From Parcubacteria group bacterium LiPW_30 (GTDB lineage: Bacteria; Patescibacteriota; Minisyncoccia; Phycocordibacterales; VMEP01): 64,000 nucleotides of DNA. This document shows positions 11,853 to 58,064 of this stretch, one piece after another. How positions within the stretch are numbered: the first letter of the stretch is position 1; the number at the start of each line of letters is the position of its first letter. The position numbers and the translations under genes are program-made. The notes under the pieces were generated by a model. The model did no database searches. It was not told the origin of the DNA and worked only from the letters and a program-made list of their open reading frames with translations. The stretch is taken from positions 255,883 to 319,882 of the forward strand of contig VMEP01000001.1 in NCBI GenBank assembly GCA_007375595.1, written 5' to 3'.

Positions 11853-12518
11853 ATGACGAAAGAAGAAATAATAAAAGAAGAAATTGTAAACGCTGATGTT
11901 CCAGCTGTTTCTTCTCCTGTCACAGAGATAGCTATTCCTGTGGAAGCTCAAAAGCCAAAGAATGATTTTTCTCCGCGCCGAGACGCCGGAAAGAAAAAAG
12001 GTGGTGGTTCACGCCCTTTTAGAAAAGGGTTTGAAAGAGTTAAACCTGAATTTGATCACAAGATAATAAATATTCGTCGTGTTGCCCGCGTTGTTGCCGG
12101 GGGACGTCGCTTTAGTTTTAGTGTTGTGTTGGTCGCAGGCGACCGAAAGGGAACTGTTGGAGTTGGAATGGGTAAGGCCGGAGACACAGCGCTTGCAATA
12201 GAAAAGGCAATGCGTTCGGCTAAGAAAAACATGTTCAAAGTTTCTTTGAATAAGAAAATGTCTATTCCTCACGACGTGGAAGCAAAATACTCAAGCGGAA
12301 CAGTGATGTTAATGCCCAACAAATCACGCGGACTTATCGCGGGTAGTGCGGTTCGTATTGTTGCTGATTTAGCTGGAGTGAAAGACATTACTGGAAAAGT
12401 TTTTTCTGGAAGTAAGAACTCTCTTAACATCGCAATGGCAACAGTTAAAGCATTAAAGATGTTGAAGCCGGCTAAGGTTAATGCCGTGGTCGCAACAGAA
12501 GATAAGGTTAGTAAATAA
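11853..12518 (+). CDS. rpsE: 30S ribosomal protein S5 with N-terminal extension
   Basis: S5 core (INIRRVARVVAGGRRFSFSVVLV...). Confidence 0.9.
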   Translation: MTKEEIIKEEIVNADVPAVSSPVTEIAIPVEAQKPKNDFSPRRDAGKKKGGGSRPFRKGFERVKPEFDHKIINIRRVARVVAGGRRFSFSVVLVAGDRKGTVGVGMGKAGDTALAIEKAMRSAKKNMFKVSLNKKMSIPHDVEAKYSSGTVMLMPNKSRGLIAGSAVRIVADLAGVKDITGKVFSGSKNSLNIAMATVKALKMLKPAKVNAVVATEDKVSK

Positions 12519-15924: not shown

Positions 15925-18675
15925 ATGGTTTTAAACTTTAACGGAGAAAGTCATGAAAAATTTGTAAATCCCGAAGAGGAGATTAATTTTTTGCGTGAAC
16001 GTCTTGCAGAAAAGGAAAAAGAAGCCTCGTTTGGTAAAGAATCGGCGCCAGTTAATCATGAAAAAGAGGTTATTAGGGAATATTCGGAAAAGCCAGCTCG
16101 GGAAATTTTGCATCACGAAAAGGTGCTGGGGGAACAAGAGGTAGAGCGTATCGTTCTTGATTTGAAGCCAGAAGAGCACGATAAACAAATGGAGGAGCTT
16201 CTAGGACTTCTTATTGAAAAAGGTGCTCGTAACACTATTTCAGTTGTGGAGAAGATGGATAATCCCCACATAACTGACGACTTTCACAGAATACTTGTTC
16301 AATATGTTAAAAGCGTAGGAAAAGTTCCAGACTTAGAAAAAGATAAACAAGTTTGGAAGGCGGTACATATGCGTCTTTATGAAATCCTTCTTCCAGAAGG
16401 AGACGCAGAAAAGCAGGCAAAAAGCTTTAAAGAAATTGTTACGATAATGGAACAGTTTTACGCTGGGATGCTTTCTGTTTCCGATGGTCGAGATAATTTT
16501 CCAGGGAAGAATTATTTTACGCTTGAGATAGCTTTGTCTAATCAAAGCAGTGAAATAGTTTTTTACGCTTCTGTTCCTGATGATAAGAGTGGTTTGTTGG
16601 AAAAACAGTTACTCGGTTTATATAAAGACGCTCGAATTAGGGAGGTAAAGGATGATTATAATATTTTTAACGAAAAGGGAGCATCTTTGGGCGCCTACGG
16701 AGCTTTCACAAAAAGTCAGGTCTATCCAATAAAAACATATGCAGATTTTGAACATGATCCACTTCCGGTAATTCTTAACGTTTTTTCTAAACTTAAAAAT
16801 AAAGGAGAGGGGGCGGCAATTCAATTTTCAGTTTCTCCTGTTGGTGATTATTTCTTGAAAAGATACGGAAGAGTGCTTGACGATTTAAAACGAGGAGTGC
16901 CAAAAGATGAAGCAACAAATATTTCGCCAACTGTCGGACAAGAGGTGGGGAGGTTTGCCAAGGAACTCATTATGGGTGTTTCTGTGCCTAAAAAAATTGA
17001 TGGGAAAGAGGTTATTGATGAAGACGCGGTAAAATATGTTTCGGAAAAAATTAGTAGCACTATTGTTAATACAAACATTCGAGTAATTGCTTCCGCAGAG
17101 ACAACCTTGCGCGCTGAAGAAATTTTAGGTGAACTACAATCGGCTTTTAATCAATTCACAGATACTAAAGGAAATGGTGTTGAGTTTAAGTCGTTAAAAC
17201 GCCACGACCTGTTGAAGCTTTTTCAAGAATTTTCTTATAGGCTATTTTCTCAAGATCATTCTTTGCCGCTCAACCTAAAAGAACTTACCACAATGTTCCA
17301 TTTTCCAGAGCAGGTTTCGTCGGCGCCACAACTAAAACAAGCCCGTTCCACGACAGCGCCTGCACCGCTTGATGCTCCAACCTACGGGACACTTCTTGGA
17401 ATAAATAAACACCGTGGAGAAAATAAGGAAATTTTTATTACCGACGAAGATCGAATGCGTCACTTTTATGTTGTCGGACAAACAGGCACTGGTAAGACCG
17501 CAATCATGAAGAACATGATTATTCAGAATATTAAAGCTGGGCACGGGGTGTGCATGATAGACCCACACGGAACCGATATTGAGGATATTTTAGGAAATAT
17601 TCCACCTGAGAGAGAAAAAGACGTTATTTATTTTGACCCAGCTTACACAGAAAGAGTGATGGGTTTGAACATGCTGGAGTATGACCAAACTCGACCAGAG
17701 CGGAAAACTTTCGTGGTTAACGAGTTGATTTCGATTTTTAATAAATTATTTGATATGAAAGTTGCTGGCGGACCAGCATTTGAACAGTACTTCAGAAACT
17801 CTGCTCTTTTGGTTATGGAACACCCAGAATCTGGCAGCACTCTTCTTGAAATTGTGCGTGTTTTGGCTGACAAATCTTTTCGTGACATGAAATTGTCTTA
17901 TTGTAAGAATCCAGTGATTACGCAGTTTTGGCAAAACGCGATTAAGACAAGCGGGGAGCAGTCGCTCGCCAACTTTGTCCCTTATATCTCAAGCAAATTT
18001 GATCCATTTTTATCAAACGATATTATGCGTCCAGTTATTGCTCAAGAAAAATCATCATTTAATTTTAGGCAAATAATGGATGAGAAAAAAATACTCTTGG
18101 TTAATTTGTCTAAAGGGAGGTTGGGAGATTTAAACGCCAATTTAATAGGGCTTATCTTGGTTGGCAAGATTCTTATTGCCGCGCTTTCTCGTGTTGATAT
18201 TGTTGGCGGAAAACCTGCTGATTTTTATTTATACATTGATGAGTTCCAAAATATAACCACTGACTCAATTTCCACAATCCTTTCAGAAGCGCGAAAATAC
18301 AGATTATCTCTAAATGTTGCCCATCAATTTATTAAACAACTTGATGAAAAAACAAAGAACGCTATTTTCGGCAACGTTGGTTCAATGGCGGTGTTTCGTG
18401 TTGGTAGTGAGGATGCAGAATTTTTAGAGAAACAACTTGCGCCAGTTTTTTCTGCAAGAGATATTATGAATTTGGACAATTATAACGCTTACGTGAAAAT
18501 GCTTATGAATGGTCAACCAGCCAGAGCTTTTAACATTGAAACGATTTCGCCAAGGAAGGGGGACGTAAATACCGCTACAAGAATTAAAGAGGCGTCTTAC
18601 CAAAAATACGGAACCCCCCGTGTAGAAATTGAGGAGCATATCGCTCAAAAGTATCGCCAAACAGGAACAGTTTAG
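15925..18675 (+). CDS. Large soluble P-loop ATPase: C-terminal VirD4/TraD/TrwB-like (type IV coupling protein family) domain with an uncharacterised ~480-aa N-terminal region
   Basis: Walker A GQTGTGKT, Walker B LYIDEF, downstream RKYR...NVAHQFIKQL resembling the T4CP R..QS..QL motif; no TM segments. Confidence 0.5.
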   Translation: MVLNFNGESHEKFVNPEEEINFLRERLAEKEKEASFGKESAPVNHEKEVIREYSEKPAREILHHEKVLGEQEVERIVLDLKPEEHDKQMEELLGLLIEKGARNTISVVEKMDNPHITDDFHRILVQYVKSVGKVPDLEKDKQVWKAVHMRLYEILLPEGDAEKQAKSFKEIVTIMEQFYAGMLSVSDGRDNFPGKNYFTLEIALSNQSSEIVFYASVPDDKSGLLEKQLLGLYKDARIREVKDDYNIFNEKGASLGAYGAFTKSQVYPIKTYADFEHDPLPVILNVFSKLKNKGEGAAIQFSVSPVGDYFLKRYGRVLDDLKRGVPKDEATNISPTVGQEVGRFAKELIMGVSVPKKIDGKEVIDEDAVKYVSEKISSTIVNTNIRVIASAETTLRAEEILGELQSAFNQFTDTKGNGVEFKSLKRHDLLKLFQEFSYRLFSQDHSLPLNLKELTTMFHFPEQVSSAPQLKQARSTTAPAPLDAPTYGTLLGINKHRGENKEIFITDEDRMRHFYVVGQTGTGKTAIMKNMIIQNIKAGHGVCMIDPHGTDIEDILGNIPPEREKDVIYFDPAYTERVMGLNMLEYDQTRPERKTFVVNELISIFNKLFDMKVAGGPAFEQYFRNSALLVMEHPESGSTLLEIVRVLADKSFRDMKLSYCKNPVITQFWQNAIKTSGEQSLANFVPYISSKFDPFLSNDIMRPVIAQEKSSFNFRQIMDEKKILLVNLSKGRLGDLNANLIGLILVGKILIAALSRVDIVGGKPADFYLYIDEFQNITTDSISTILSEARKYRLSLNVAHQFIKQLDEKTKNAIFGNVGSMAVFRVGSEDAEFLEKQLAPVFSARDIMNLDNYNAYVKMLMNGQPARAFNIETISPRKGDVNTATRIKEASYQKYGTPRVEIEEHIAQKYRQTGTV

Positions 18676-25305: not shown

Positions 25306-25451
25306 AGTTATATAGTCTAGCCTATTTTAGGGTAAATACACAAGGAGGAAGGGGAATATACCCGTTTGACCTTTCTGTGATTATCATGTAGTAGTTAGTG
25401 TTAGTAATTGTTGAATTTTCAATCAACGGGATAGAAAAGGAAAAAACGATC

Positions 25452-26861
25452 ATGCACATTTCAACTCGCGGTTTGGCTCCGGCGGTTAATTTTGCCTACA
25501 CGGTGCTCAAGGGAATTGCGCCAGATGGTGGTTTATACGTTCCGGAGAAGATTTTCCAGTTTGCCGAAGATGACATTCGTCGGCTTGCTGGACTTTCCTA
25601 TACGGAGGTTGCCAAAATTGTCATGGATCGGTTTGCTCCGGACATGGACAAAGTCGCGCTTCACGGCGCGATAGACAAGGCTTATACCCCCGACGTTTTT
25701 GCAAACGTTACCGAAAAGGATGACAATCCCATCGACATCGTCCCTGTGCGCCATCTTGGTCAAGATTTGTATCTTGCTCGGCTGAGCAATGGGCCAACTC
25801 TCGCATTCAAGGATTTGGCGTTGCAGTTGCTTGGCCACCTCTTCGAAATCGTTCTCGACGGGAAACCACTCAACGTGCTTGGGGCGACGTCGGGCGACAC
25901 GGGGTCGGCGGCTATTCATGCCATGCTCGGAAGAAAGGATATACGCGTTTTCATGCTCTCTCCGCATGGCAGGATGAGTCAATTTCAATCGGCTCAGATT
26001 TTGGGCGTCAATGACCCGATGATTCACAACATTTCGGTCAACGGTTCGTTCGACGATTGCCAAGACGTGGTGAAGGCGGTTAGCGGGGACGCTAGCTTCA
26101 GGGAGGAGTACAACATCGGCGCCGTAAACTCAATCAATTGGGCAAGGGTTGCCGCGCAGGTGGTCTACTACTTCTTTGTTTGCTCCCGCATCCGTGGTCG
26201 TGATGGTGGCCAAATTGACGTCGCCGTCCCGACAGGGAATTACGGCAACATCTATGCGGCCTGGGTTGCGAAAATGATGGGGTTGCCGATTCGTCGGCTG
26301 ATTCTCGCAACCAACGAAAACGATGTTCTGCATGAGTTTTTCACAACGGGCATTTACAGGCCCAGACTGAAGACCATCGAAACGTCGAGTCCGTCGATGG
26401 ACATCACCAAGGCGTCGAATTTCGAGCGTTACGTTTTTGACGTTTTTGGCGGCAACTCAACCAAGGTTGCAAGGCTGTGGGCGGCACTCGACAAGACGGG
26501 GCAGTTTGATTTGTCGCACAGGATGGCGAAGATTCGCGAGACAGGTATTACTTCCTGCGCAGTTCAGCAGGAACAAGTCGCCGAGACCATCAACTACGCC
26601 TTCGTGAAGTACGGCATCGTCATCGACCCCCACACGGCGGTAGCAATGCACTCGGCAATTAATACGCAGCAGTCCGGCGTGCCGATGGTCGTGATGGAGA
26701 CAGCTCAGCCCTGCAAGTTTGACCTTGCTATAAAGCAGGCGCTTGGTTTCACTGTATCGCCTCCTTCGAGCATGAAGGACCTTATGTCCACAAAGCAGTT
26801 CTTTACGCAGATGGATCCAAACGTCGAAGCGACCAAGGAATTCATTCGCGCGCGGGCATGA
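25452..26861 (+). CDS. thrC: Threonine synthase
   Basis: PLP-enzyme motifs GPTLAFKD and ATSGDTGSAA; GC ~55-60%, well above background. Confidence 0.85.
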   Translation: MHISTRGLAPAVNFAYTVLKGIAPDGGLYVPEKIFQFAEDDIRRLAGLSYTEVAKIVMDRFAPDMDKVALHGAIDKAYTPDVFANVTEKDDNPIDIVPVRHLGQDLYLARLSNGPTLAFKDLALQLLGHLFEIVLDGKPLNVLGATSGDTGSAAIHAMLGRKDIRVFMLSPHGRMSQFQSAQILGVNDPMIHNISVNGSFDDCQDVVKAVSGDASFREEYNIGAVNSINWARVAAQVVYYFFVCSRIRGRDGGQIDVAVPTGNYGNIYAAWVAKMMGLPIRRLILATNENDVLHEFFTTGIYRPRLKTIETSSPSMDITKASNFERYVFDVFGGNSTKVARLWAALDKTGQFDLSHRMAKIRETGITSCAVQQEQVAETINYAFVKYGIVIDPHTAVAMHSAINTQQSGVPMVVMETAQPCKFDLAIKQALGFTVSPPSSMKDLMSTKQFFTQMDPNVEATKEFIRARA

Positions 26862-32184: not shown

Positions 32185-32631
32185 CTACATGTTTTTCAAT
32201 GATCTCCTTACTTCACGCATGTCGTCTCGTTTTTTTATTGTCTCGCGTTTATCAAATTTCTTTTTACCGCGAGCAACTCCGAGCGACACCTTGACCTTAC
32301 CTTTTTTATTATACATCGAAAGTGGCACTATTGTCAACTTCTTTTCTTGCTCCATTTGGGCAAGTTCAATGATTTCTTTCTTGGTTAGAAGGAGTTTTCT
32401 GGTGCGGAGAGGATCATAACCTTTTGGCATATTTCCGGCTTGATATGGCGGGATATTTGAACCAAGTAAAAAAACTTCGCCACCACGGACGACAGCATAA
32501 GCCCCCTCAAGGGAACCCATACCTCCTTTAATAGACTTAACCTCAGGACCTAAAAGCTCAATACCAGCTTCTAGTGTTTCCGTAATTTCGTAATTAAATC
32601 TAGCTTTTTTGTTTTCTATGAAAGAAGACAT
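32185..32631 (-). CDS. smpB: SsrA-binding protein SmpB
   Basis: SmpB family sequence; adjacent to tmRNA. Confidence 0.9.
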   Translation of the reverse strand: MSSFIENKKARFNYEITETLEAGIELLGPEVKSIKGGMGSLEGAYAVVRGGEVFLLGSNIPPYQAGNMPKGYDPLRTRKLLLTKKEIIELAQMEQEKKLTIVPLSMYNKKGKVKVSLGVARGKKKFDKRETIKKRDDMREVRRSLKNM

Positions 32632-32699
32632 ATTGCGATTCTAACACGCCTTAAGATATTTTTTCATATACTTTTAAACTGGTGTATAATGTCGAAACT

Positions 32700-34634
32700 A
32701 TGGAAATAAAAATGCCAAAAATGAAGGGTGGAAAAGACGAAAAGGGGAATAAAAAAGAATTGAAAAAAATGACCACTATTCAATTGGTCAGCAATATTGC
32801 TACAGCTCTTTTAATTTTCCTACTCTTAACTTCTCTATATTCATATATTTCCGAGCGCGCTAAAAAACCAGCCAACATTCCAGTCTCCGAAGCTGCTCAA
32901 TTAGTTCAAGATGGAAAGGTAAAAAAGATTTCGGTTGTTGGTGAGGAATTGAAAATCACACTTACTGACGATACAGAGCGCACTTCAAAGAAAGAAAAAG
33001 AGTCGGCAGTTTCTGAAACACTTTCGCGCTACGGTGTTACTTCTGAAAAATTATCTAAAGTTGAAGTTTCTATTTCAGATGACCGTGGTGTTTCATTTTG
33101 GTTACTCAACATTTTACCTTTTCTTATTCCCGTTCTTTTCATTGTCTTTTTCTTTTGGTTCTTATCTCGACAAGTTAAGGGCGCTGGCATGCAAGCATTT
33201 ACTTTCGGACAATCCAAAGCCCGCGTTATTGACCCTCTAGATTTAAATCAAAAAGTAACATTTAAAGATGTCGCAGGGGTGAAAGAAGCAAAGGAAGAAT
33301 TACGTGAGATTGTCGACTTTTTGAAAAACCCTAAAAAATTCTTAGACATCGGCGCACGTATTCCAAAAGGTGTTCTTTTGATGGGTGCTCCCGGCACAGG
33401 AAAAACATTGCTTGCAAGAGCGGTGGCGGGGGAAGCAGCCGTGCCATTTTTCTATCTATCCGGTTCTGAATTCGTGGAAATGTTTGTTGGCGTTGGCGCT
33501 TCTCGTGTACGCGACTTGTTTATGATGGCAAAGAAAGCAGCTCCAGCAATTGTTTTCGTTGATGAAATTGACGCCGTTGGTCGCGTGCGCGGAACAGGTG
33601 TTGGTGGTGGCAACGATGAACGCGAGCAAACACTGAATCAAATTCTAGTCGAGATGGATGGTTTTGAACCAACCGAGAAAGTTATTGTTATGGCAGCAAC
33701 CAACAGGCCTGATGTTTTGGACCCAGCTTTGCTTCGTCCAGGTCGTTTTGATCGTCGAGTAATTCTTGATTTACCAGACCGCGACGAACGTGAAGAGATT
33801 TTGAAAATTCACAGTTTGAAAAAGCCATTAACCGAAGATGTTAACCTCCGTGTGATTGCTGAACGTACACCTGGTTTTTCTGGCGCTGATTTATTCTCAC
33901 TTATGAACGAAGGTGCAATTTTGGCCGCACGAGAAATAAGAAAGAAAGTTTCCCAATACGACCTTATTCGTTCTATTGAAAAAGTGATGATGGGCCCAGA
34001 AAGAAAGAGCCACCTTCTCTCTATTAAAGAAAAAGAAATTACCGCCTACCACGAAGCAGGGCACGCGCTACTTGCTTCCGTCTTACCATATGCTGACCCA
34101 GTGCATAAAGTTTCAATCGTTGCTCGTGGTCGCGCTGGTGGATACACACTAAAACTTCCAATCGAAGAAAGAAAATTACAATCGAAGAAAGAGTTTTTGG
34201 ATGATATTGTTGTTTCTCTTGGTGGATACGTTGCTGAAGAAACAGTTTTTGGTGATTTAACAACAGGACCATCAAACGACCTTCAAGTCGCAACCGCCTT
34301 AGCGCGCGACATGGTTACTAAATATGGAATGTCTGAAAAGATGGGACCAGTCGCGCTTGAAGGTTCTGGTGGGCGAGTTTTATTTGGAACCGGTGTTTCG
34401 GATCACGGCTATTCCGAAGTTGTTTCCGCAAAAATTGACGAAGAGGTTTCAAAGATAATGAACGATTCAATGAAAAAAGCGCAGGCGGAAATAAAAACAC
34501 ACAGAAAAATACTTGATGCTATCGCCAAAGAACTTGTTTCAGTTGAAACGATTGAGCGAGAAGAGTTTGAAAAAATTCTTGTTGCCAATGGCATAATGCC
34601 AAAGAAGGGAGAGGGAATCGACATCGTTTCGTAA
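32700..34634 (+). CDS. ftsH: ATP-dependent zinc metalloprotease FtsH
   Basis: AAA Walker [18 protein letters not shown] zinc site; start uncertain (a -10-like TGTATAAT at 32683-32690 argues against the 32682 start). Confidence 0.9.
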
Positions 34635-34644
34635 AAATAAATAT

Positions 34645-34678
34645 AAAACAAAAAAACCGCCAAATGGCGGTTTTTTTA
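34645..34678. terminator. Bidirectional terminator
   Basis: aaaaaaaccgccaaatggcggttttttta. Confidence 0.7.
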
Positions 34679-35671
34679 TTACTTAAGATTTAATCTTTCA
34701 GAAATCAAATCTACTTTTCCACGCACGTTTTCATAGTTAGATTTCTTTGAAGCGTAAAGCTCATAGTCTTTCTTTGTGTGTGAGTCACCACCACCACTTT
34801 CAAGTGCTTTGTATTTTTTTATCAACCCTTTTAGTATTTCTTGTTCTTTTTTTATTCCCTCTTTAAATTTACCTTTAAAGCCCAATCCATAAGTTGTTTC
34901 AAGACCATCAATACGCTTTTGTTTCAAAAGCTTCTCTACTAGTTTTAGTGGAATTTCTTTTGCGGTGGTGAAATAGTGGGCGATAAAGGCAAGACCTCCG
35001 GCATTTCTAATAAGCTTAACGGCTTCGTCTAAATCAGGTCGGTCATCTATTTCAACAGAACATGGTTTAAATGCGTGATGTCCAAGGAAAAGACTATAGG
35101 GTTGTTGATATTCGCCAACGTTCATCATTAAGTCGTATTCTTTTTTAATTTTGTCATTTGTTTTTGAAGCCTCCTTCATTTCCTCTATAGATTTCTTAAA
35201 AATAAGAAGATTCCTCTTTTTTGAAAGAAGGATGGAAACGATATGTGGTTTATTAACTACTCCTTCGCCAGCCTTTCGAAGACACTCTTTTGCTGTTATA
35301 GAAAGACCATATTTTTGAAGATTTAAAACCGTCTTTTCCATGCGAGTAATTCTCAATCGTGATATTTTTTCCGTGAACGCGCGAAGTTTTTTATTTTGAG
35401 GGTTAACAAACAAACCTATTGTATGTAGCGTGCCGTTTCCACGGAGGGCCTCTTTGGGGTGCTTTGCAGAAATTTCAATTCCCATAACCACATTCACAGG
35501 ACCTTTATATTTTTTTAGAAAAGTAAGTGTTTTATCACTCGGTAATACATCGTGGTCAGTAAAAGCTAGAGTTTTGTAACCTAGTTTTTCAGTAAGAGCT
35601 AAGACTTCTTTGTGGCTTAAATCGCCGTCTGAAATTTTTGTATGATTATGTAGGGATTCAATATTTTTCAT
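34679..35671 (-). CDS. PHP-domain metal-dependent phosphoesterase
   Basis: N-terminal H.H..SDG and later His/Asp ligand pattern of the PHP family. Confidence 0.65.
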   Translation of the reverse strand: MKNIESLHNHTKISDGDLSHKEVLALTEKLGYKTLAFTDHDVLPSDKTLTFLKKYKGPVNVVMGIEISAKHPKEALRGNGTLHTIGLFVNPQNKKLRAFTEKISRLRITRMEKTVLNLQKYGLSITAKECLRKAGEGVVNKPHIVSILLSKKRNLLIFKKSIEEMKEASKTNDKIKKEYDLMMNVGEYQQPYSLFLGHHAFKPCSVEIDDRPDLDEAVKLIRNAGGLAFIAHYFTTAKEIPLKLVEKLLKQKRIDGLETTYGLGFKGKFKEGIKKEQEILKGLIKKYKALESGGGDSHTKKDYELYASKKSNYENVRGKVDLISERLNLK

Positions 35672-35744
35672 TTCGTATGGTATTTTGAGCCGTCAGTATA
35701 ACATTTTGTCTTAATCTTAGTTTTCCTGTTTTTATTAGAAACCA

Positions 35745-35786
35745 TCCCCCGACTATAATTACGCTATAGCGTAATTATAGTCGGGG
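35745..35786. repeat. Perfect 42-bp palindrome centred on GCTATAGC
   Basis: cccccgactataattacgc TATA gcgtaattatagtcggggg. Confidence 0.8.
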
Positions 35787-35882
35787 GGGGTTATTTAAAA
35801 CTTGTGCAGTTTCTCTTGAAAATGTAAACTTCGATTTACGTTCTATTTATTTATGTAGCCAAGAACTTGATTGAAAATATGC

Positions 35883-35960
35883 GTCCGCCCTTAGCTCAGT
35901 TGGTTAGAGCACAGAGCTTATACCTCTGCGGTCCCTGGTTCGAATCCAGGAGGGCGGACA
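35883..35960 (+). tRNA. tRNA with anticodon TAT (UAU; reads AUA, Ile); acceptor helix can extend to 9 bp
   Basis: Cloverleaf folded by hand: D-arm TAGCTCAGTTGGTTAGAGC, anticodon stem CAGAG/CTCTG, loop CTTATAC, T-loop TTCGAAT, acceptor CCGCCCT/AGGGCGG. Confidence 0.6.
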
Positions 35961-35974
35961 TATATTTTCAGTTT

Positions 35975-38134
35975 CTACTCAAAGTGTATCGTTGCTTCTT
36001 TTTCCGCTAGTTTTTCTTTAAGTCTAGGATATTTAGTGAGCTTGTTTTCAAGAATTATTTTTTTTGCTTCCTCTCGCGCTGCTTCCACCATCTTTAGATT
36101 TTTTAGCGCCTCCATTCCAATATCAGAAAGCCCCCATTGTTTTCCGCCAGAGAGTTCTCCTGGGCCACGTAGTTTTAAATCAAGTTCGGCAAGCTCAAAT
36201 CCATTTTTCGCTTCAGTGATTGCCTTTAGGCGAGCTTTTGATTTTTCGTTGTCTGACTCAGGGAATAAATAACAATATGATTGATGACTACTTCGCTGGA
36301 CTCGTCCGCGAAGTTGGTGAAGTTGAGCTAGTCCAAATCTTTCCGCACCCTCAATAATAATTGAAGTTGCGTTGGGAACATTTAATCCAACTTCTACCAC
36401 AGAAGTTGCAACCAAAATATTCATTTTCCCAAAAAGAAAATCTTCCATCACTCGGTCACGTTCTTCGCGCTTCATCTTGCTGTGTAAAATTCCGATAGTA
36501 GATTTTGGGAAAACACTTTTCTTTAAACGTTTAGCTTCAGCTGTTACCGACTTCGCATTCAGTGCCATTGATTTGTCTGGATCTGGTTCGTCAATTCGCG
36601 GACAAATTATATATGCCTGCCTACCAGCGGTAATTTCTTCTTGGATTTTTTCATAAACTTTTTCGCGTTTTCCTTTGGTGACAATTTCTGTAATAACTTG
36701 TTTTCGCCCAACAGGCATTTCGTCTATCAGTGTTAAATCTAGGTCTCCATAGACGGTTAGCGCGAGCGTGCGTGGGATTGGAGTTGCGGTCATTGAAAGA
36801 AGGTGTGGAGCGGAAGTATCTTTGCGAGCAAGCCTCATTCGCTGGTTTGTGCCGAATCGATGTTGTTCGTCAATAACAACTAAACCTAAGTTTTTAAAAG
36901 AAACACTTTTTTGTATTAAGGCGTGTGTTCCAATTACGATTGGAATTTCCCCATTTGCCACCCATTTCAGAAATTGAGTTCTTGAAATATTTGTCCAAGA
37001 GCTCGGATTTACTTTTGATGGAAATTTTCTACACCCTGAACCCGTAATTAAACCAACGGAGATATTCATGTGGGTAAAATATTTTATGAAGGATTCAAAA
37101 TGCTGAGAAGCCAATATTTCAGTTGGCGCCATATAAGCGACCTGCATTCTGGCGGCGCGGTTTTCTTTAGGGCTTGTGGAAATAACCGCGTAAGAAGCAG
37201 TTGCCGCAACGGCAGTTTTTCCCGAACCAACATCTCCTTCAAGTAGGCGCGACATTGGTTTTCCACTTTTGAAATCTTCCAAAATGTCTTTTATCGCATT
37301 GTTCTGCGCCTCGGTTGCTTCAAAAGGGAAGCGTTCAATAAACCCTTGAACATCCTCTTTGTCGGGTTCTATAACAAACGAGTTATTTTTTTCAAATTCA
37401 AACTTTGCTTGTTGTCGTTGTAGTTGGATGAAAAAGACTTCTTCGAAAGCGAAACGTTTGCGCGCCGCAGAAGCGTGAGATTCATTTTTGGGATTATGTA
37501 TAAAAATGAGCGCATCTTTTAACTGAGGAAGTTTGTATTTTGTAAGAATCTCGTTTGGTATTGGGTCATCTAAAGTATTTAAAAAATTTGCTTGAAGTAA
37601 TTTTCTTATTGAGTGCTGAAACCACAAAGAAGAAATTCCCTTACTTTCCTCATATACAGGAATCATGCTCTCGGTTGTGACCGCCTCTCCCAGTAACCCG
37701 TTTTGAAGAGGGAGGCTCGCAACACGCTCTATATCTGGGTTTGCTAAATATCGTGAACCACTTCTTTCTGAAATAACACCACTTACTCTCACAGAAGATT
37801 CGGCAGGAATCATTTTTGCGAGATATGGTTGGTTGAACCAAACTATTTTTATTGAGCCTGTGTGGTCGGTGAGAGTTCCTTCGGCCATTGGGATTTTTTT
37901 TCGGAAAGCTTTGCTTGTTTTAAGATTGGTTAGTTTGCCGAAAAAAATAACCCGGTCGCCAGAACGAGAAGATAAAATTGCTTGAGACGAACCAAAGTCT
38001 ATATAGCGCGAGGGAAGGTGATAAAGAAGATCTCTTACTGTTATTATTTTTAGTTTAACAAGAGCTTCTTTCTGAGATTGATTTAACCTAAAAAGAGAAG
38101 ATATTGGGGTTTTTTCCTCAAAGGTTGTTTGCAT
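35975..38134 (-). CDS. recG: ATP-dependent DNA helicase RecG
   Basis: Wedge domain plus SF2 helicase motifs GDVGSGKT, DEQHRFG. Confidence 0.9.
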   Translation of the reverse strand: MQTTFEEKTPISSLFRLNQSQKEALVKLKIITVRDLLYHLPSRYIDFGSSQAILSSRSGDRVIFFGKLTNLKTSKAFRKKIPMAEGTLTDHTGSIKIVWFNQPYLAKMIPAESSVRVSGVISERSGSRYLANPDIERVASLPLQNGLLGEAVTTESMIPVYEESKGISSLWFQHSIRKLLQANFLNTLDDPIPNEILTKYKLPQLKDALIFIHNPKNESHASAARKRFAFEEVFFIQLQRQQAKFEFEKNNSFVIEPDKEDVQGFIERFPFEATEAQNNAIKDILEDFKSGKPMSRLLEGDVGSGKTAVAATASYAVISTSPKENRAARMQVAYMAPTEILASQHFESFIKYFTHMNISVGLITGSGCRKFPSKVNPSSWTNISRTQFLKWVANGEIPIVIGTHALIQKSVSFKNLGLVVIDEQHRFGTNQRMRLARKDTSAPHLLSMTATPIPRTLALTVYGDLDLTLIDEMPVGRKQVITEIVTKGKREKVYEKIQEEITAGRQAYIICPRIDEPDPDKSMALNAKSVTAEAKRLKKSVFPKSTIGILHSKMKREERDRVMEDFLFGKMNILVATSVVEVGLNVPNATSIIIEGAERFGLAQLHQLRGRVQRSSHQSYCYLFPESDNEKSKARLKAITEAKNGFELAELDLKLRGPGELSGGKQWGLSDIGMEALKNLKMVEAAREEAKKIILENKLTKYPRLKEKLAEKEATIHFE

Positions 38135-38169
38135 ACGTGTTGCCTTTTAGTATAGCAAACTCATTGAGG

Positions 38170-38766
38170 TTAATTTTTCTTGTTACTACCAAGAATATTT
38201 TCTTCAAAAATTGTAGTGATAAGACGCTCAACCACAAGGAAAAGAAGAAGACCTAAGGCGAGCCCAATTTCGGCATAGCGGAAATAATATTTAAGGTGAG
38301 GTATCCAAGCGCTTGTAGTATAAGCAATCCCTCCGACTATAAAGATCCAGACAAGCACTGCTTTTACGTCAGCTCTAAAAAATTTTCTAACTGGGACGTT
38401 AAGCATTCCTGAACGAATTAAGGTTATACGATTGGTGCCATAGATAAATTTCGTGGCCATAAGGAGAGTATCTGTACGGTTTAAAATGCCGTCATCAAAG
38501 CGTTTAGTTACCTTGCTAATTATTTTAGAAGGTAGACTTTCGGGATGTCTGTTGGCAAATTTTCCTAATGAGTACCATAAAAAATCCCCAATGAGCGCGC
38601 CTAAAATAAGAAGTGGGGCGATATATGGAAGATAGAAAAATCCTTGTTTTGTAAGAAAAGCGGAAACGAAGACAACAACATCACCTTCAATCATCATTAA
38701 AGCAAAGGCCCCTAAATAGGCGGATAGTTTCCAAGAGATTAAGTATTTTAGGAAGAGGGTTTTCAT
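38170..38766 (-). CDS. DedA/VTT-family membrane protein
   Basis: TM topology and DedA-like core. Confidence 0.65.
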   Translation of the reverse strand: MKTLFLKYLISWKLSAYLGAFALMMIEGDVVVFVSAFLTKQGFFYLPYIAPLLILGALIGDFLWYSLGKFANRHPESLPSKIISKVTKRFDDGILNRTDTLLMATKFIYGTNRITLIRSGMLNVPVRKFFRADVKAVLVWIFIVGGIAYTTSAWIPHLKYYFRYAEIGLALGLLLFLVVERLITTIFEENILGSNKKN

Positions 38767-38874
38767 GGGAGCTTATCTATAATTTGTTTCAGCATATCAT
38801 AATTTTTTATCATAAAAACAAAAAGGCGCATGTAGATTTTTCTACACACGCCTCCTAAGGTTAGGCTGAAGGTT

Positions 38875-39327
38875 TTATTCCAGCCCGACCAAACTCAGGG
38901 TCATCCCCAGAATCGGCAGATGGTTTGGAAAAAAGTTCTGGAGCCCTCGGATTTGGTCAAGGGAGAACGACTTCACAATTTCTCCCTCGTCGCCAGTTGC
39001 CGCGAGATCTGCAAAGTCCCCAAGTCCGACGTAGAGATACTGGGTGTGGGTCCTCTTGTCGAGTTTCCCGAGCCTGGATACTCGCACCGTCACACCAGTC
39101 TCTTCTTTGACCTCACGTACGGCGGCATTGTCTGCTGCCAAATGGTCGTCGTATGGATGTTCTGGATTGACGTCCTCCTTGTCGATTTTTCCGCCAGGGA
39201 ACTTCCAGTAATGTGGCTCAGGTTTCGTTTTGTCGAGGACTAAGGCAAATCGCCCCGTATTCTCGTCAATTACCGCAACAACAGACGCGCCAATACCGGC
39301 CGTCTTATCAGATTTTTGATTAGCCAA
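38875..39327 (-). CDS. NUDIX hydrolase
   Basis: Nudix box GGKIDKED....AAVREVKEETGV; GC-rich. Confidence 0.7.
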   Translation of the reverse strand: MANQKSDKTAGIGASVVAVIDENTGRFALVLDKTKPEPHYWKFPGGKIDKEDVNPEHPYDDHLAADNAAVREVKEETGVTVRVSRLGKLDKRTHTQYLYVGLGDFADLAATGDEGEIVKSFSLDQIRGLQNFFPNHLPILGMTLSLVGLE

Positions 39328-39534
39328 TTTAACCCACCTCCTAGCGGGGGAAAATCAAGTTAAGTTAAAGGGTCTTGCTACTTTTTATGATAGCACGTTT
39401 GTATAAAAAAGTCAATGCGGGGTGGTAATGTGTACACATTACCCATAGAGCTTGACTACTTAATTCTGCCATGTTACCGTACAAAAAGATTCATTGTCCC
39501 GCTCCGAAAGGAGCTTTCCTTAAAGGAGGAACCC

Positions 39535-39894
39535 ATGCTACTGTCCAGCGAGTTAGCCTTGCAATTGAAATCCGTTCGGAAACCGATCGTGTTCTCTCTT
39601 TTCGGACCGGAAGGCGCCGATGACGAGCGGGAACAAATCATCTTCAAGAATGCTCTGGTCGTCGAAGTAATTAACGCCTTGCGACTCTGTGGCTTCTGTC
39701 AAATCTATGCCGCCAAACTCCTGATTGGAACCTCCAATGAGGCAAGAGTGCGGAGAGAAACCTTCGAGCTTCTTGAGCTTTTCCAAAGGCAGATCATGCT
39801 TTTGAGGATCGGCGGAGAGACCCTCAAGTTCGAGACACTCGAATTTGGCGAACCGGGCTCAGTGTCGATTCGGCTGGATGTACTTTTGATTTGA
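39535..39894 (+). CDS. Hypothetical protein (GC-rich)
   Basis: RBS AAAGGAGGAA before internal Met; terminator downstream. Confidence 0.35.
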   Translation: MLLSSELALQLKSVRKPIVFSLFGPEGADDEREQIIFKNALVVEVINALRLCGFCQIYAAKLLIGTSNEARVRRETFELLELFQRQIMLLRIGGETLKFETLEFGEPGSVSIRLDVLLI

Positions 39895-39912
39895 CGCGAA
39901 CTGTCAAAACAG

Positions 39913-39945
39913 GCCGCCCCAATTGGGGCGGCTAACTTTTTTAAT
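39913..39945 (+). terminator. Rho-independent terminator
   Basis: caggccgccccaattggggcggctaacttttttaa. Confidence 0.65.
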
Positions 39946-39959
39946 TATTTTCTTCGGCC

Positions 39960-40165
39960 AAATATCTTACTTGCTGTTGCTCGTAAAAATTTAAAACGGA
40001 GACGGTGGTTCGGCCACGAATATTTTACTCGCCGTCGCTCGTAAAATTTCTTGACCACGGCTCGCGACCTGTTCTGCTGAACAGGTGCCCGCTCCGCCTT
40101 TCGAATCCCACCGTCTTTACGAAAAATATAGTCACAAAATGCTTCACATTTTGTTCCTTGTTTTA
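39960..40165. repeat. Degenerate repeats derived from the tRNA-Ser 3' end
   Basis: aacggagacggtgg at 40002 and 40165; ttcgaatcccaccgtct at 40097 is an inverted copy of the T-arm/acceptor; direct repeats ttact[ct]gc[ct]gt[ct]gctcgtaaaa at 39969 and 40025. Confidence 0.5.
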
Positions 40166-40252
40166 CGGAGACGGTGGGATTCGAACCCACGGTCCCGATT
40201 AAGGGACGCCTCGTTAGCAGTGAGGTGCTTTCGACCACTCAGCCACGTCTCC
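40166..40252 (-). tRNA. tRNA-Ser (anticodon GCT) with long variable arm
   Basis: GGAGACGTGGCTGAGTGGTCGAAAGC...CTGCTAA loop...long extra arm...GGTTCGAATCC. Confidence 0.85.
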
Positions 40253-57858: not shown

Positions 57859-57863
57859 TTATA

Positions 57864-57932
57864 GCGGGATGGAGAAGTGGTATCTCGCAAGGCTCATAAC
57901 CTTGAGGCGCCCGTTCGAGTCGGGCTCCCGCA
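57864..57932 (+). tRNA. tRNA (anticodon CAT; Met or Ile-lysidine type), compact D-region
   Basis: Acceptor GCGGGAT/CTCCCGC, D-stem GAGA/TCTC, anticodon stem CAAGG/CCTTG, loop CTCATAA, T-loop TTCGAGT. Confidence 0.55.
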
Positions 57933-57993
57933 ACAAGTAAGCGTGGGTGACAGTCGCGAAGTTTCTAGTGTCACAGTACGATTATGATAGCTT

Positions 57994-58064
57994 GCCGATG
58001 TAGTTCAATGGTAGAACGAAGGACTCATAAGCCTTAGACAATGGTCCGATTCCATTCATCGGCA
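57994..58064 (+). tRNA. tRNA (anticodon CAT), second copy type
   Basis: Acceptor GCCGATG/CATCGGC, D-arm TAGTTCAATGGTAGAAC, loop CTCATAA, T-arm AATGG/CCATT. Confidence 0.55.

Follow-up and report, generated by a model that had tools for sequence, protein, structure and literature searches.

The window analysed here is a 64-kb stretch of contig VMEP01000001.1 from Parcubacteria group bacterium LiPW_30, a bacterial chromosome segment of 40% G+C. Between its convergent ftsH (32682-34634, + strand; assigned by Pfam, with smpB upstream and divergent) and recG (35975-38134, - strand; Pfam RecG_wedge/DEAD/Helicase_C/RecG_dom3_C) lies a transfer RNA (tRNA) gene with the anticodon UAU, tRNA-Ile(UAU). 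ARAGORN called tRNA-Ile(tat) at 35885-35959 of the + strand, and Rfam RF00005 matched 35885-35958 with 69.7 bits (E = 3.8e-13, gathering score 29). In this register the tRNA body (positions 1-73, 74 nucleotides (nt), 35885-35958) opens with C1 at 35885 paired to G72 at 35957 and is closed by the discriminator A73 at 35958, followed by C74 at 35959. A sequence-only reading of this DNA had proposed a UAU-anticodon tRNA with C1-G72; Rfam and ARAGORN both agree with this register, and ARAGORN returned the same anticodon. The anticodon T34-A35-T36 (35919-35921) sits in the loop CTTATAC (C32-U33-U34-A35-U36-A37-C38, 35917-35923). The cloverleaf is canonical, with U8, A14, G18-G19, G15-C48, G46 and the T-loop TTCGAAT. 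The 3' end reads ACATA, with ATA after C74, and the CCA end is therefore not encoded. The genomic TAT anticodon together with A37 and A73 fits the UAU-type bacterial tRNA-Ile2 (Mycoplasma mobile type). A promoter scan of 35600-36050 found no sigma-70-like site. The best Escherichia coli matches are tRNA-Arg genes at ~80% identity and were set aside as uninformative on ancestry.

Comparison of 112 distinct relatives showed 99.9-100% pairing in each of the four cloverleaf helices and compensatory changes at six of the seven acceptor pairs, all five anticodon-stem pairs and three of the five T-stem pairs. Because the helices stay paired through compensatory changes, the gene is under selection as a tRNA; this conservation and the high family score rule out a chance match or a pseudogene. 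A73 is invariant across 113 sequences, as befits an isoleucine discriminator. A scan of one genome per species with the pattern C1-N6-TAGCTCAGTTGGTTAGAGC-N6-CTTATAC, which imposes C1 and the D-arm sequence, found a C1-type tRNA(UAU) in at least 120 species-level genomes. Among the matches listed, every named title is of Patescibacteria type and none belongs to a named phylum outside the Candidate Phyla Radiation (CPR). In viral contigs, C1-G72 occurs in two of ~119 tRNA(UAU) genes (L011 and L041, one of them on a 312-kb contig), an approximate figure from a roughly parsed comparison in which some members carry introns.

The genomic position of the tRNA is conserved as well. A homologue of FtsH lies within the locus in 85 of 120 relatives and one of RecG in 70 of 120, and the tRNA stands between convergent ftsH and recG in either orientation: ftsH is upstream on the same strand in 59 loci (median gap to the tRNA 139 nt) and downstream on the opposite strand in 25. 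The order smpB, ftsH, tRNA-Ile(UAU), recG, tRNA-Ser(GCU) is deeply conserved across Patescibacteria classes (window 32185-40252; L121-L240, L363-L370). Because the genome scan forced C1 and the D-arm, an independent sample was taken through RecG homologues only, and all six loci of that sample have a tRNA(UAU) between recG and ftsH. Their first acceptor pair differs: it is C-G in L363 (91% RecG relative) and L369, G-C in L364, L366 and L368, and A-U in L367. The loop CTTATAC is also present in four of these relatives whose acceptor stems, and in two cases also D-arms, fall outside the scan pattern. Given this variation at 1:72, the UAU anticodon is the constant feature, and C1-G72 is frequent but not fixed. 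The idea that C1-G72 is a fixed signature of the lineage or an identity element was accordingly rejected (two C-G, three G-C, one A-U); some related metagenome contigs carry this pair in their elongator tRNA-Met(CAU) too. A metagenome scan for C1 with a CAT anticodon returned many matches, none of them adjoining ftsH or recG.

The window is rich in AUA. In its 65 long open reading frames (ORFs), AUA accounts for 315 of 1260 isoleucine codons (25%), or 18.7 per 1000 codons, and it is used in the ribosomal protein genes too. Its meaning was examined by comparing positions of FtsH, RecG and SmpB in the window with the codons at the same positions in Patescibacteria homologues. At AUA positions the homologues have isoleucine encoded by ATT or ATC in 33%, leucine in 18%, AUA itself in 18%, valine in 12.5% and methionine in less than 1.4%. 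This profile resembles that of ATT/ATC positions and is unlike that of ATG positions, where methionine makes up 57%. Since AUA positions align with isoleucine, leucine and valine and hardly ever with methionine, AUA means isoleucine, and its reassignment to methionine or another amino acid is ruled out. The suggestion of the sequence-only reading that AUA is decoded non-canonically thus survives in one respect, in that the tRNA points to lysidine-independent reading, and fails in another, in that the outcome of decoding is the usual one. The decoder is unusual and the genetic code standard.

In most bacteria, AUA is read by tRNA-Ile2(CAU), whose C34 is changed to lysidine by TilS. The window gene does the same job in a different way: position 34 is T, which leaves TilS without a C34 to modify. 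Its body resembles the tRNA-Ile2 of E. coli and Bacillus subtilis in C4-G69, C5-G68, the D-arm and the CGGUC variable loop, whereas its first pairs are flipped (C1-G72, C2-G71).

Whether the two systems coexist was assessed from Table S2 of Nakagawa et al. 2026 (PMC13011429), which gives tRNA isotype counts for 95 complete Patescibacteria genomes. The tRNAscan-SE count for Ile was set against the ARAGORN count for Met, which takes in all CAT tRNAs. At least two tRNA-Ile with at most two CAT tRNAs were found in 40 genomes (ABY1 2, Dojkabacteria 7, Doudnabacteria 1, Gracilibacteria 2, Microgenomatia 12, Paceibacteria 14, UBA1384 1, WWE3 1). A single tRNA-Ile with at least three CAT tRNAs was found in 50 (Saccharimonadia 34, JAEDAM01 7, Paceibacteria 5, Gracilibacteria 3, Kazan-3B-28 1). 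Five genomes have at least two tRNA-Ile and at least three CAT tRNAs (ABY1 2, Paceibacteria 1, Saccharimonadia 2), and none has neither. Two tRNA-Ile are thus present in 45 of the 95 genomes, 40 of which have no more than two CAT tRNAs. As the second tRNA-Ile and the third CAT tRNA are nearly mutually exclusive, the UAU tRNA apparently takes the place of tRNA-Ile2(CAU). PMC13011429 is silent on UAU, AUA and lysidine; the tally and its reading belong to the present analysis. The rarity of a genomic TAT anticodon, asserted in the sequence-only reading, therefore holds for classical bacteria and does not hold for Patescibacteria, as the species scan, the RecG-sampled loci and the complete genomes with a second tRNA-Ile all show. 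The tRNA-Ile(UAU) of the window is ordinary for its lineage.

A tblastn search with E. coli TilS, run on the window and on 0.84 Mb of related loci, found no match, and a motif scan of the same sequences found no ORF with an N-terminal PP-loop. The TilS family is absent from the Pfam labels of the genes around ftsH and recG in seven relatives, and tilS does not adjoin ftsH in the window. The window holds exactly two CAT tRNAs, which are adjacent to each other and followed by tRNA-Asp (57863-58064, + strand; ARAGORN, Rfam). The first (57863-57933) is initiator-like, with an A1xA72 mismatch and A11-U24, and the second (57994-58064) is presumed to be the elongator tRNA-Met. The same initiator-Met-Asp cluster recurs in related metagenome contigs. 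We infer that tRNA-Ile2(CAU) and tilS have been lost from this genome.

The closest known counterpart is the system of Mycoplasma mobile, in which an unmodified UAU anticodon reads AUA, the isoleucyl-tRNA synthetase (IleRS) carries an Arg that accepts U34 (at the position of W905 in E. coli), and the ribosome rejects AUG (Taniguchi 2013, PMC3575796). The same paper describes Bifidobacterium and Neorickettsia, which lack tilS and have a eukaryote-type IleRS, as well as some Lactobacillus (casei/plantarum), which have tilS and tRNA-Ile(UAU) together; in 2013 it counted tRNA-Ile(UAU) in nine species of three clades. The window shares with M. mobile a bacterial elongator tRNA with a genomic UAU anticodon and AUA as isoleucine, and the complete-genome pattern likewise indicates replacement of tRNA-Ile2(CAU). 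The TAT-anticodon tRNA-Ile is also the point of likeness to Bifidobacterium and Neorickettsia, without tilS, and to L. casei/plantarum, alongside it. The differences from M. mobile lie in the phylum and in the breadth, most Patescibacteria classes as against nine species in three clades, and in the tRNA itself, in which 1:72 is C-G in the window and varies among relatives and C38 is conserved in Patescibacteria.

These comparisons support the following reading, to which we give a probability of about three in four. The tRNA-Ile(UAU) would be the functional minor isoleucine tRNA of a Patescibacterium. It would read AUA directly as isoleucine through its genome-encoded anticodon and stand in, as in M. 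mobile, for tRNA-Ile2(CAU) and the lysidine synthetase TilS. Its mature form would have a 7-base-pair (bp) acceptor stem, and an outer helix, described below, would act on the precursor or on the DNA. The IleRS of this genome should then accept U34, and U34 is presumably either unmodified or modified so as to limit the reading of AUG. The Patescibacteria tRNA has the isoleucine-like features A73, A37, C4-G69 and U12-A23.

Several points weigh against replacement of the lysidine system or limit its reach. Table S2 gives isotypes, not anticodons, and the identification of the second tRNA-Ile with the UAU tRNA comes from our own loci. The canonical pattern (one tRNA-Ile, at least three CAT tRNAs) is shown by 5 of the 20 complete Paceibacteria genomes, and the five complete genomes of the tally that combine both features appear to have both systems. 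In this genome, the part beyond the 64-kb window could contain tilS and a third CAT tRNA, and the window ORFs examined do not include an IleRS. C38 and G29-C41 of tRNA-Ile(UAU) depart from the E. coli IleRS identity set, which is reported to include A38 and C29-G41; this departure hints at an adapted IleRS.

The same points bear on an alternative in which tilS and tRNA-Ile2(CAU) are kept elsewhere in the genome and the UAU tRNA is an extra reader of AUA, as in L. casei/plantarum. The five genomes that combine a second tRNA-Ile with three or more CAT tRNAs, the bacteria with both systems listed by Taniguchi 2013 (PMC3575796), and a view limited to 64 kb of the genome all fit such redundancy. 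However, of the 15 complete genomes of Paceibacteria in which two tRNA-Ile are present, 14 have just two CAT tRNAs, the two CAT tRNAs of the window are an initiator-like and an elongator-like one in a conserved cluster, and no TilS-like sequence was found in the window or the related loci. We therefore regard a redundant decoder as unlikely and prefer replacement.

The tRNA-Ile(UAU) of the window is enclosed in a long helix. RNAfold pairs 35869-35881 and 35883-35891 with 35951-35959 and 35961-35973, a helix of 22 bp interrupted by a single 1x1 mismatch between C35882 (C-3) and A35960 (A75), at -49.6 kcal/mol (z = -7.0). The fold of the antisense strand is just as good (-47.5 kcal/mol, z = -6.8). 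The same complementarity appears as an inverted repeat of 20 nt (35872-35891 versus 35951-35970, 90% complementarity). The 5' leader arm (35869-35884, + strand) holds the A-tract TTGAAAAT and leaves C35882 unpaired. The 3' arm (35958-35973, + strand) consists of A73, C74 and the trailer ATATATTTTCAGTT, leaves A35960 unpaired, and ends 2 nt before the stop codon of recG (35975-35977, - strand). Both arms are defined by the inverted repeat and by RNAfold.

The distribution of the helix was analysed by setting 14 leader bases against 14 bases of the trailer at 121 loci and scoring their pairing without gaps, with mismatched leaders and trailers as controls. A score of at least 10 was reached at 13 of the 121 loci (control frequency 1.3%) and one of at least 12 at 10 of the 121 (0.14%). 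The window scores 13/14, for which the control frequency is ~0.0006, and no other tRNA in these loci exceeds 9/14. The high-scoring subset takes in L370, a 98% relative with flanks identical to those of the window, and L363, in which both the flank sequence and the length of the inner stem differ and the flanks are still paired. The helix is ~24-31 bp long in L159, L179, L170, L209 and L213. Within the subset, 12 of the 14 extension pairs have changes on both sides. Because the subset was picked by its pairing score, its figure of 86% paired is circular; the diversity of pair types is not. Thus, the long helix is real, is specific to the tRNA-Ile(UAU) gene, and occurs in about one tenth of the lineages with different sequences.

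The innermost part of this helix accounts for another proposal of the sequence-only reading, an acceptor helix of 9 bp. T35884:A35958 and G35883:C35959 do lengthen the acceptor helix to 9 bp, and taken alone these two pairs are within chance. However, the lengthening is not conserved and is instead the start of the longer flank helix. Among the 112 relatives the -1:73 pair is U-A in 64, the -2:74 pair is G-C in 14, and -3:75 is paired in 44, so that the extension cells are 36% paired overall versus 99.9% for the seven canonical acceptor pairs. U(-1) is the commonest leader base in these loci and also stands upstream of 25 of 35 other tRNAs. Because the -1 and -2 pairs are not conserved, U(-1) is common to other tRNAs, and every tRNA gene of the window encodes C74, the mature tRNA is unlikely to have a 9-bp stem. 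Most likely its acceptor stem has the normal 7 bp, opening with C1-G72, and the long helix belongs to the precursor or to the DNA. In two relatives (L164:6387-6465 and L217:916-993) the 3' end reads A73-C74-C75-C76(-A), and ARAGORN draws an 8-bp acceptor with U-1:A73 and takes C74 as the discriminator; in L164 a CCA is encoded after this C74.

With regard to the role of the long helix, a putative processing stem is the candidate that we entertain tentatively. A double-strand-specific nuclease, RNase III for instance, would cut the tRNA from a longer transcript, for example from an ftsH or recG message at its 3' end, and the tRNA would then pass to RNase P and 3' trimming. The length of the helix (22 bp in the window and more in the five relatives named above), the maintenance of pairing by differing sequences, including that of L363, its restriction to this tRNA, and the 59 loci in which the tRNA follows ftsH on the same strand at a median of 139 nt all argue for processing. 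The helix has one property of an RNase III-type leader-trailer stem, a length of about 20 bp or more kept up by compensatory change, with the caveat that the subset was selected by pairing, which also makes its percentage paired circular. The helix occurs in only ~10% of the sampled lineages and therefore is not generally needed for this tRNA. Long flank complementarity, with an A-tract upstream and a U-tract downstream, recalls both the RNase III stems of rRNA operons and bidirectional intrinsic terminators. Unlike these, the helix here surrounds a single tRNA between convergent protein genes.

The likeness to terminators leads to a second role, which we consider doubtful. The antisense tRNA and the extra pairs could form the hairpin of a putative intrinsic terminator for the convergent recG, with the complement of the A-tract, AUUUUCAA, as its U-tract; such a terminator may be bidirectional. 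The recG stop codon lies 2 nt from the end of the helix, and the antisense fold is as good as the sense fold. In addition, an A-tract of the TTGAAAAT type lies just outside the inner paired segment and shifts with the length of that segment (-14 to -7 in the window, -16 to -9 in L363). However, the A- and U-tracts are mostly paired within the helix, and a branched "loop" of 59 nt is atypical of intrinsic terminators. Beyond the helix, the high-scoring subset is no richer in T than the other loci, and no U-tract enrichment was seen there. Many relatives have a convergent gene 3-15 nt away and no extension, and among the loci no association was seen between an extended helix and a closely abutting convergent gene.

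It is still less probable that the flanking inverted repeat acts at the DNA level, permitting inversion of the tRNA between ftsH and recG or remaining as a remnant of it. Both orientations do occur in the one slot, as the 59 loci with an upstream ftsH on the tRNA strand and the 25 with a downstream ftsH on the other strand show, and the subset with the repeat spans both with similar arms (AGAGT/ACTCT in L159 and L149 versus L147, L197 and L207). However, for homologous recombination arms of 16-31 bp are short, no recombinase gene was noticed in the neighbourhood, and most loci of either orientation lack the repeat.

Finally, a true 8- or 9-bp acceptor stem in the mature tRNA, with the 5' end at -1 or -2 as in tRNA-His (G-1:C73, 8 bp) or tRNA-Sec (8/5 or 9/4), is highly improbable: U(-1):A73 and G(-2):C74 are able to pair, as bases before position 1 do with 73/74 in those tRNAs, and ARAGORN draws an 8-bp stem for L164 and L217, but the extra pairs lack the conservation that the seven canonical pairs have, U(-1) is equally common upstream of other tRNAs, A73 is invariant as an isoleucine discriminator should be, and the anticodon, discriminator and architecture of the window tRNA fit neither tRNA-His nor tRNA-Sec. 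The 7-bp acceptor stem within a longer precursor or DNA helix is the arrangement that we retain.

The remaining genes of the window are consistent with its lineage. They include a ribosomal protein cluster, secY, adk, map, RNase J, transfer-messenger RNA (tmRNA), smpB, ftsH, recG, type IV pilus genes, ligA and gatA. The uL30 gene is absent between S5 (11853-12518) and L15 (12524-12973), which are separated by a gap of 5 nt; its absence is reportedly a hallmark of the CPR. The closest named RecG homologues are from Candidatus Paceibacterota, Parcubacteria, Taylorbacteria, Zambryskibacteria, Yonathbacteria and Minisyncoccia, and the RecG identity to the window is 91% for P0002, which is one of these, and 98% for the best match overall (P0001). 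An exact-protein look-up returned no record for the RecG of the window, and for its SmpB a Logan contig only. Because of the missing uL30, the RecG homologues and the matches of the tRNA-pattern scan, the window fits Patescibacteria (CPR), most likely the class Paceibacteria. In this sublineage a PHP-domain gene (34679-35671, - strand; Pfam PF02811) lies between ftsH and the tRNA, as it does in L363 and L370.

Between the start of the PHP gene and tRNA-Ile(UAU) lies a palindrome (35745-35788; CCCCCGACTATAATTACGC-TATA-GCGTAATTATAGTCGGGGG), a perfect 20 bp with a 4-nt loop. It contains TATAAT on both strands and is flagged as terminator-like on both. The palindrome is kept with altered ends in the 98% relative L370; at its site L363 has a different, G+C-rich sequence that is hairpin-like by eye only. 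Elsewhere in the window, an ORF of 916 amino acids (15925-18675) with HerA/TraG/TrwB-type coupling-protein domains directly follows map; one would not expect a coupling protein where the ribosomal protein-secY-adk-map cluster ends. The segment 24001-28000, around tRNA-Ala(GGC) and the threonine synthase gene (25398-26861), has a G+C content of 48% versus ~40% elsewhere.

The other tRNAs of the window also show departures from common patterns. C74 is encoded in all eight tRNA genes (24930-60048), and C75-A76 are mostly not; a CCA is encoded only in tRNA-Ala(GGC) and tRNA-Thr(CGT). Positions 73-74 are AC in 114 of 114 related tRNA-Ile(UAU) genes, and position 75 is usually A. Such genes, in which C74 is encoded without C75-A76, suggest that this base is retained or required when the 3' end matures. 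The tRNA-Met(CAU) at 57994-58064, presumed to be the elongator, is only 71-72 nt long, with a 4-nt variable loop, and its T-loop TCCGATT has C in place of the near-universal U55 (pseudouridine). The initiator-like tRNA at 57863-57933 has A1xA72, not the bacterial C1xA72 mismatch; its counterparts in related contigs have C1xA72, or a paired A1-U72 (L263) or U1-A72 (L271). In metagenome contigs L249-L328 (e.g. L254:3841-3915), the CAT tRNA adjoining the initiator and tRNA-Asp carries C1-G72 (acceptor CCCGGGG.../...CTCCGGG or CCTCGGG), and its anticodon stem has a conserved A31-A39 mismatch.

The tRNA-Ile(UAU) of the window is a minor tRNA-Ile of a kind already known, from a lineage that is different and very large. 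Taken together, the comparisons suggest that the UAU tRNA is the normal AUA decoder in most Patescibacteria classes. A broader proposal goes further, and we regard it as finely balanced: most classes (ABY1, Dojkabacteria, Microgenomatia, most Paceibacteria, WWE3 and others) may have given up lysidine and read AUA with a U34 tRNA-Ile from the ftsH-recG slot, some lineages adding a long flanking helix as a device for processing, termination or inversion. TilS is regarded as a nearly universal, essential bacterial enzyme. In the literature searched, we found no paper describing AUA decoding in CPR, Patescibacteria or Saccharibacteria, and a recent preprint (bioRxiv 10.64898/2026.02.03.703510) still terms the bacterial tRNA-Ile(UAU) a rare exception. 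The more interesting leads are the replacement of the lysidine system on the scale of a phylum and the sporadic long flanking helix. The finding bears on annotation, both in the use of tilS as a marker gene and in the classing of CAT tRNAs. It also bears on how bacteria with small genomes keep a U34 tRNA from reading AUG, and on the evolutionary model of mutual replacement between UAU and LAU decoders. If the proposal is true, lysidine-free decoding of AUA would be a phylum-scale bacterial state rather than an oddity of a few species.

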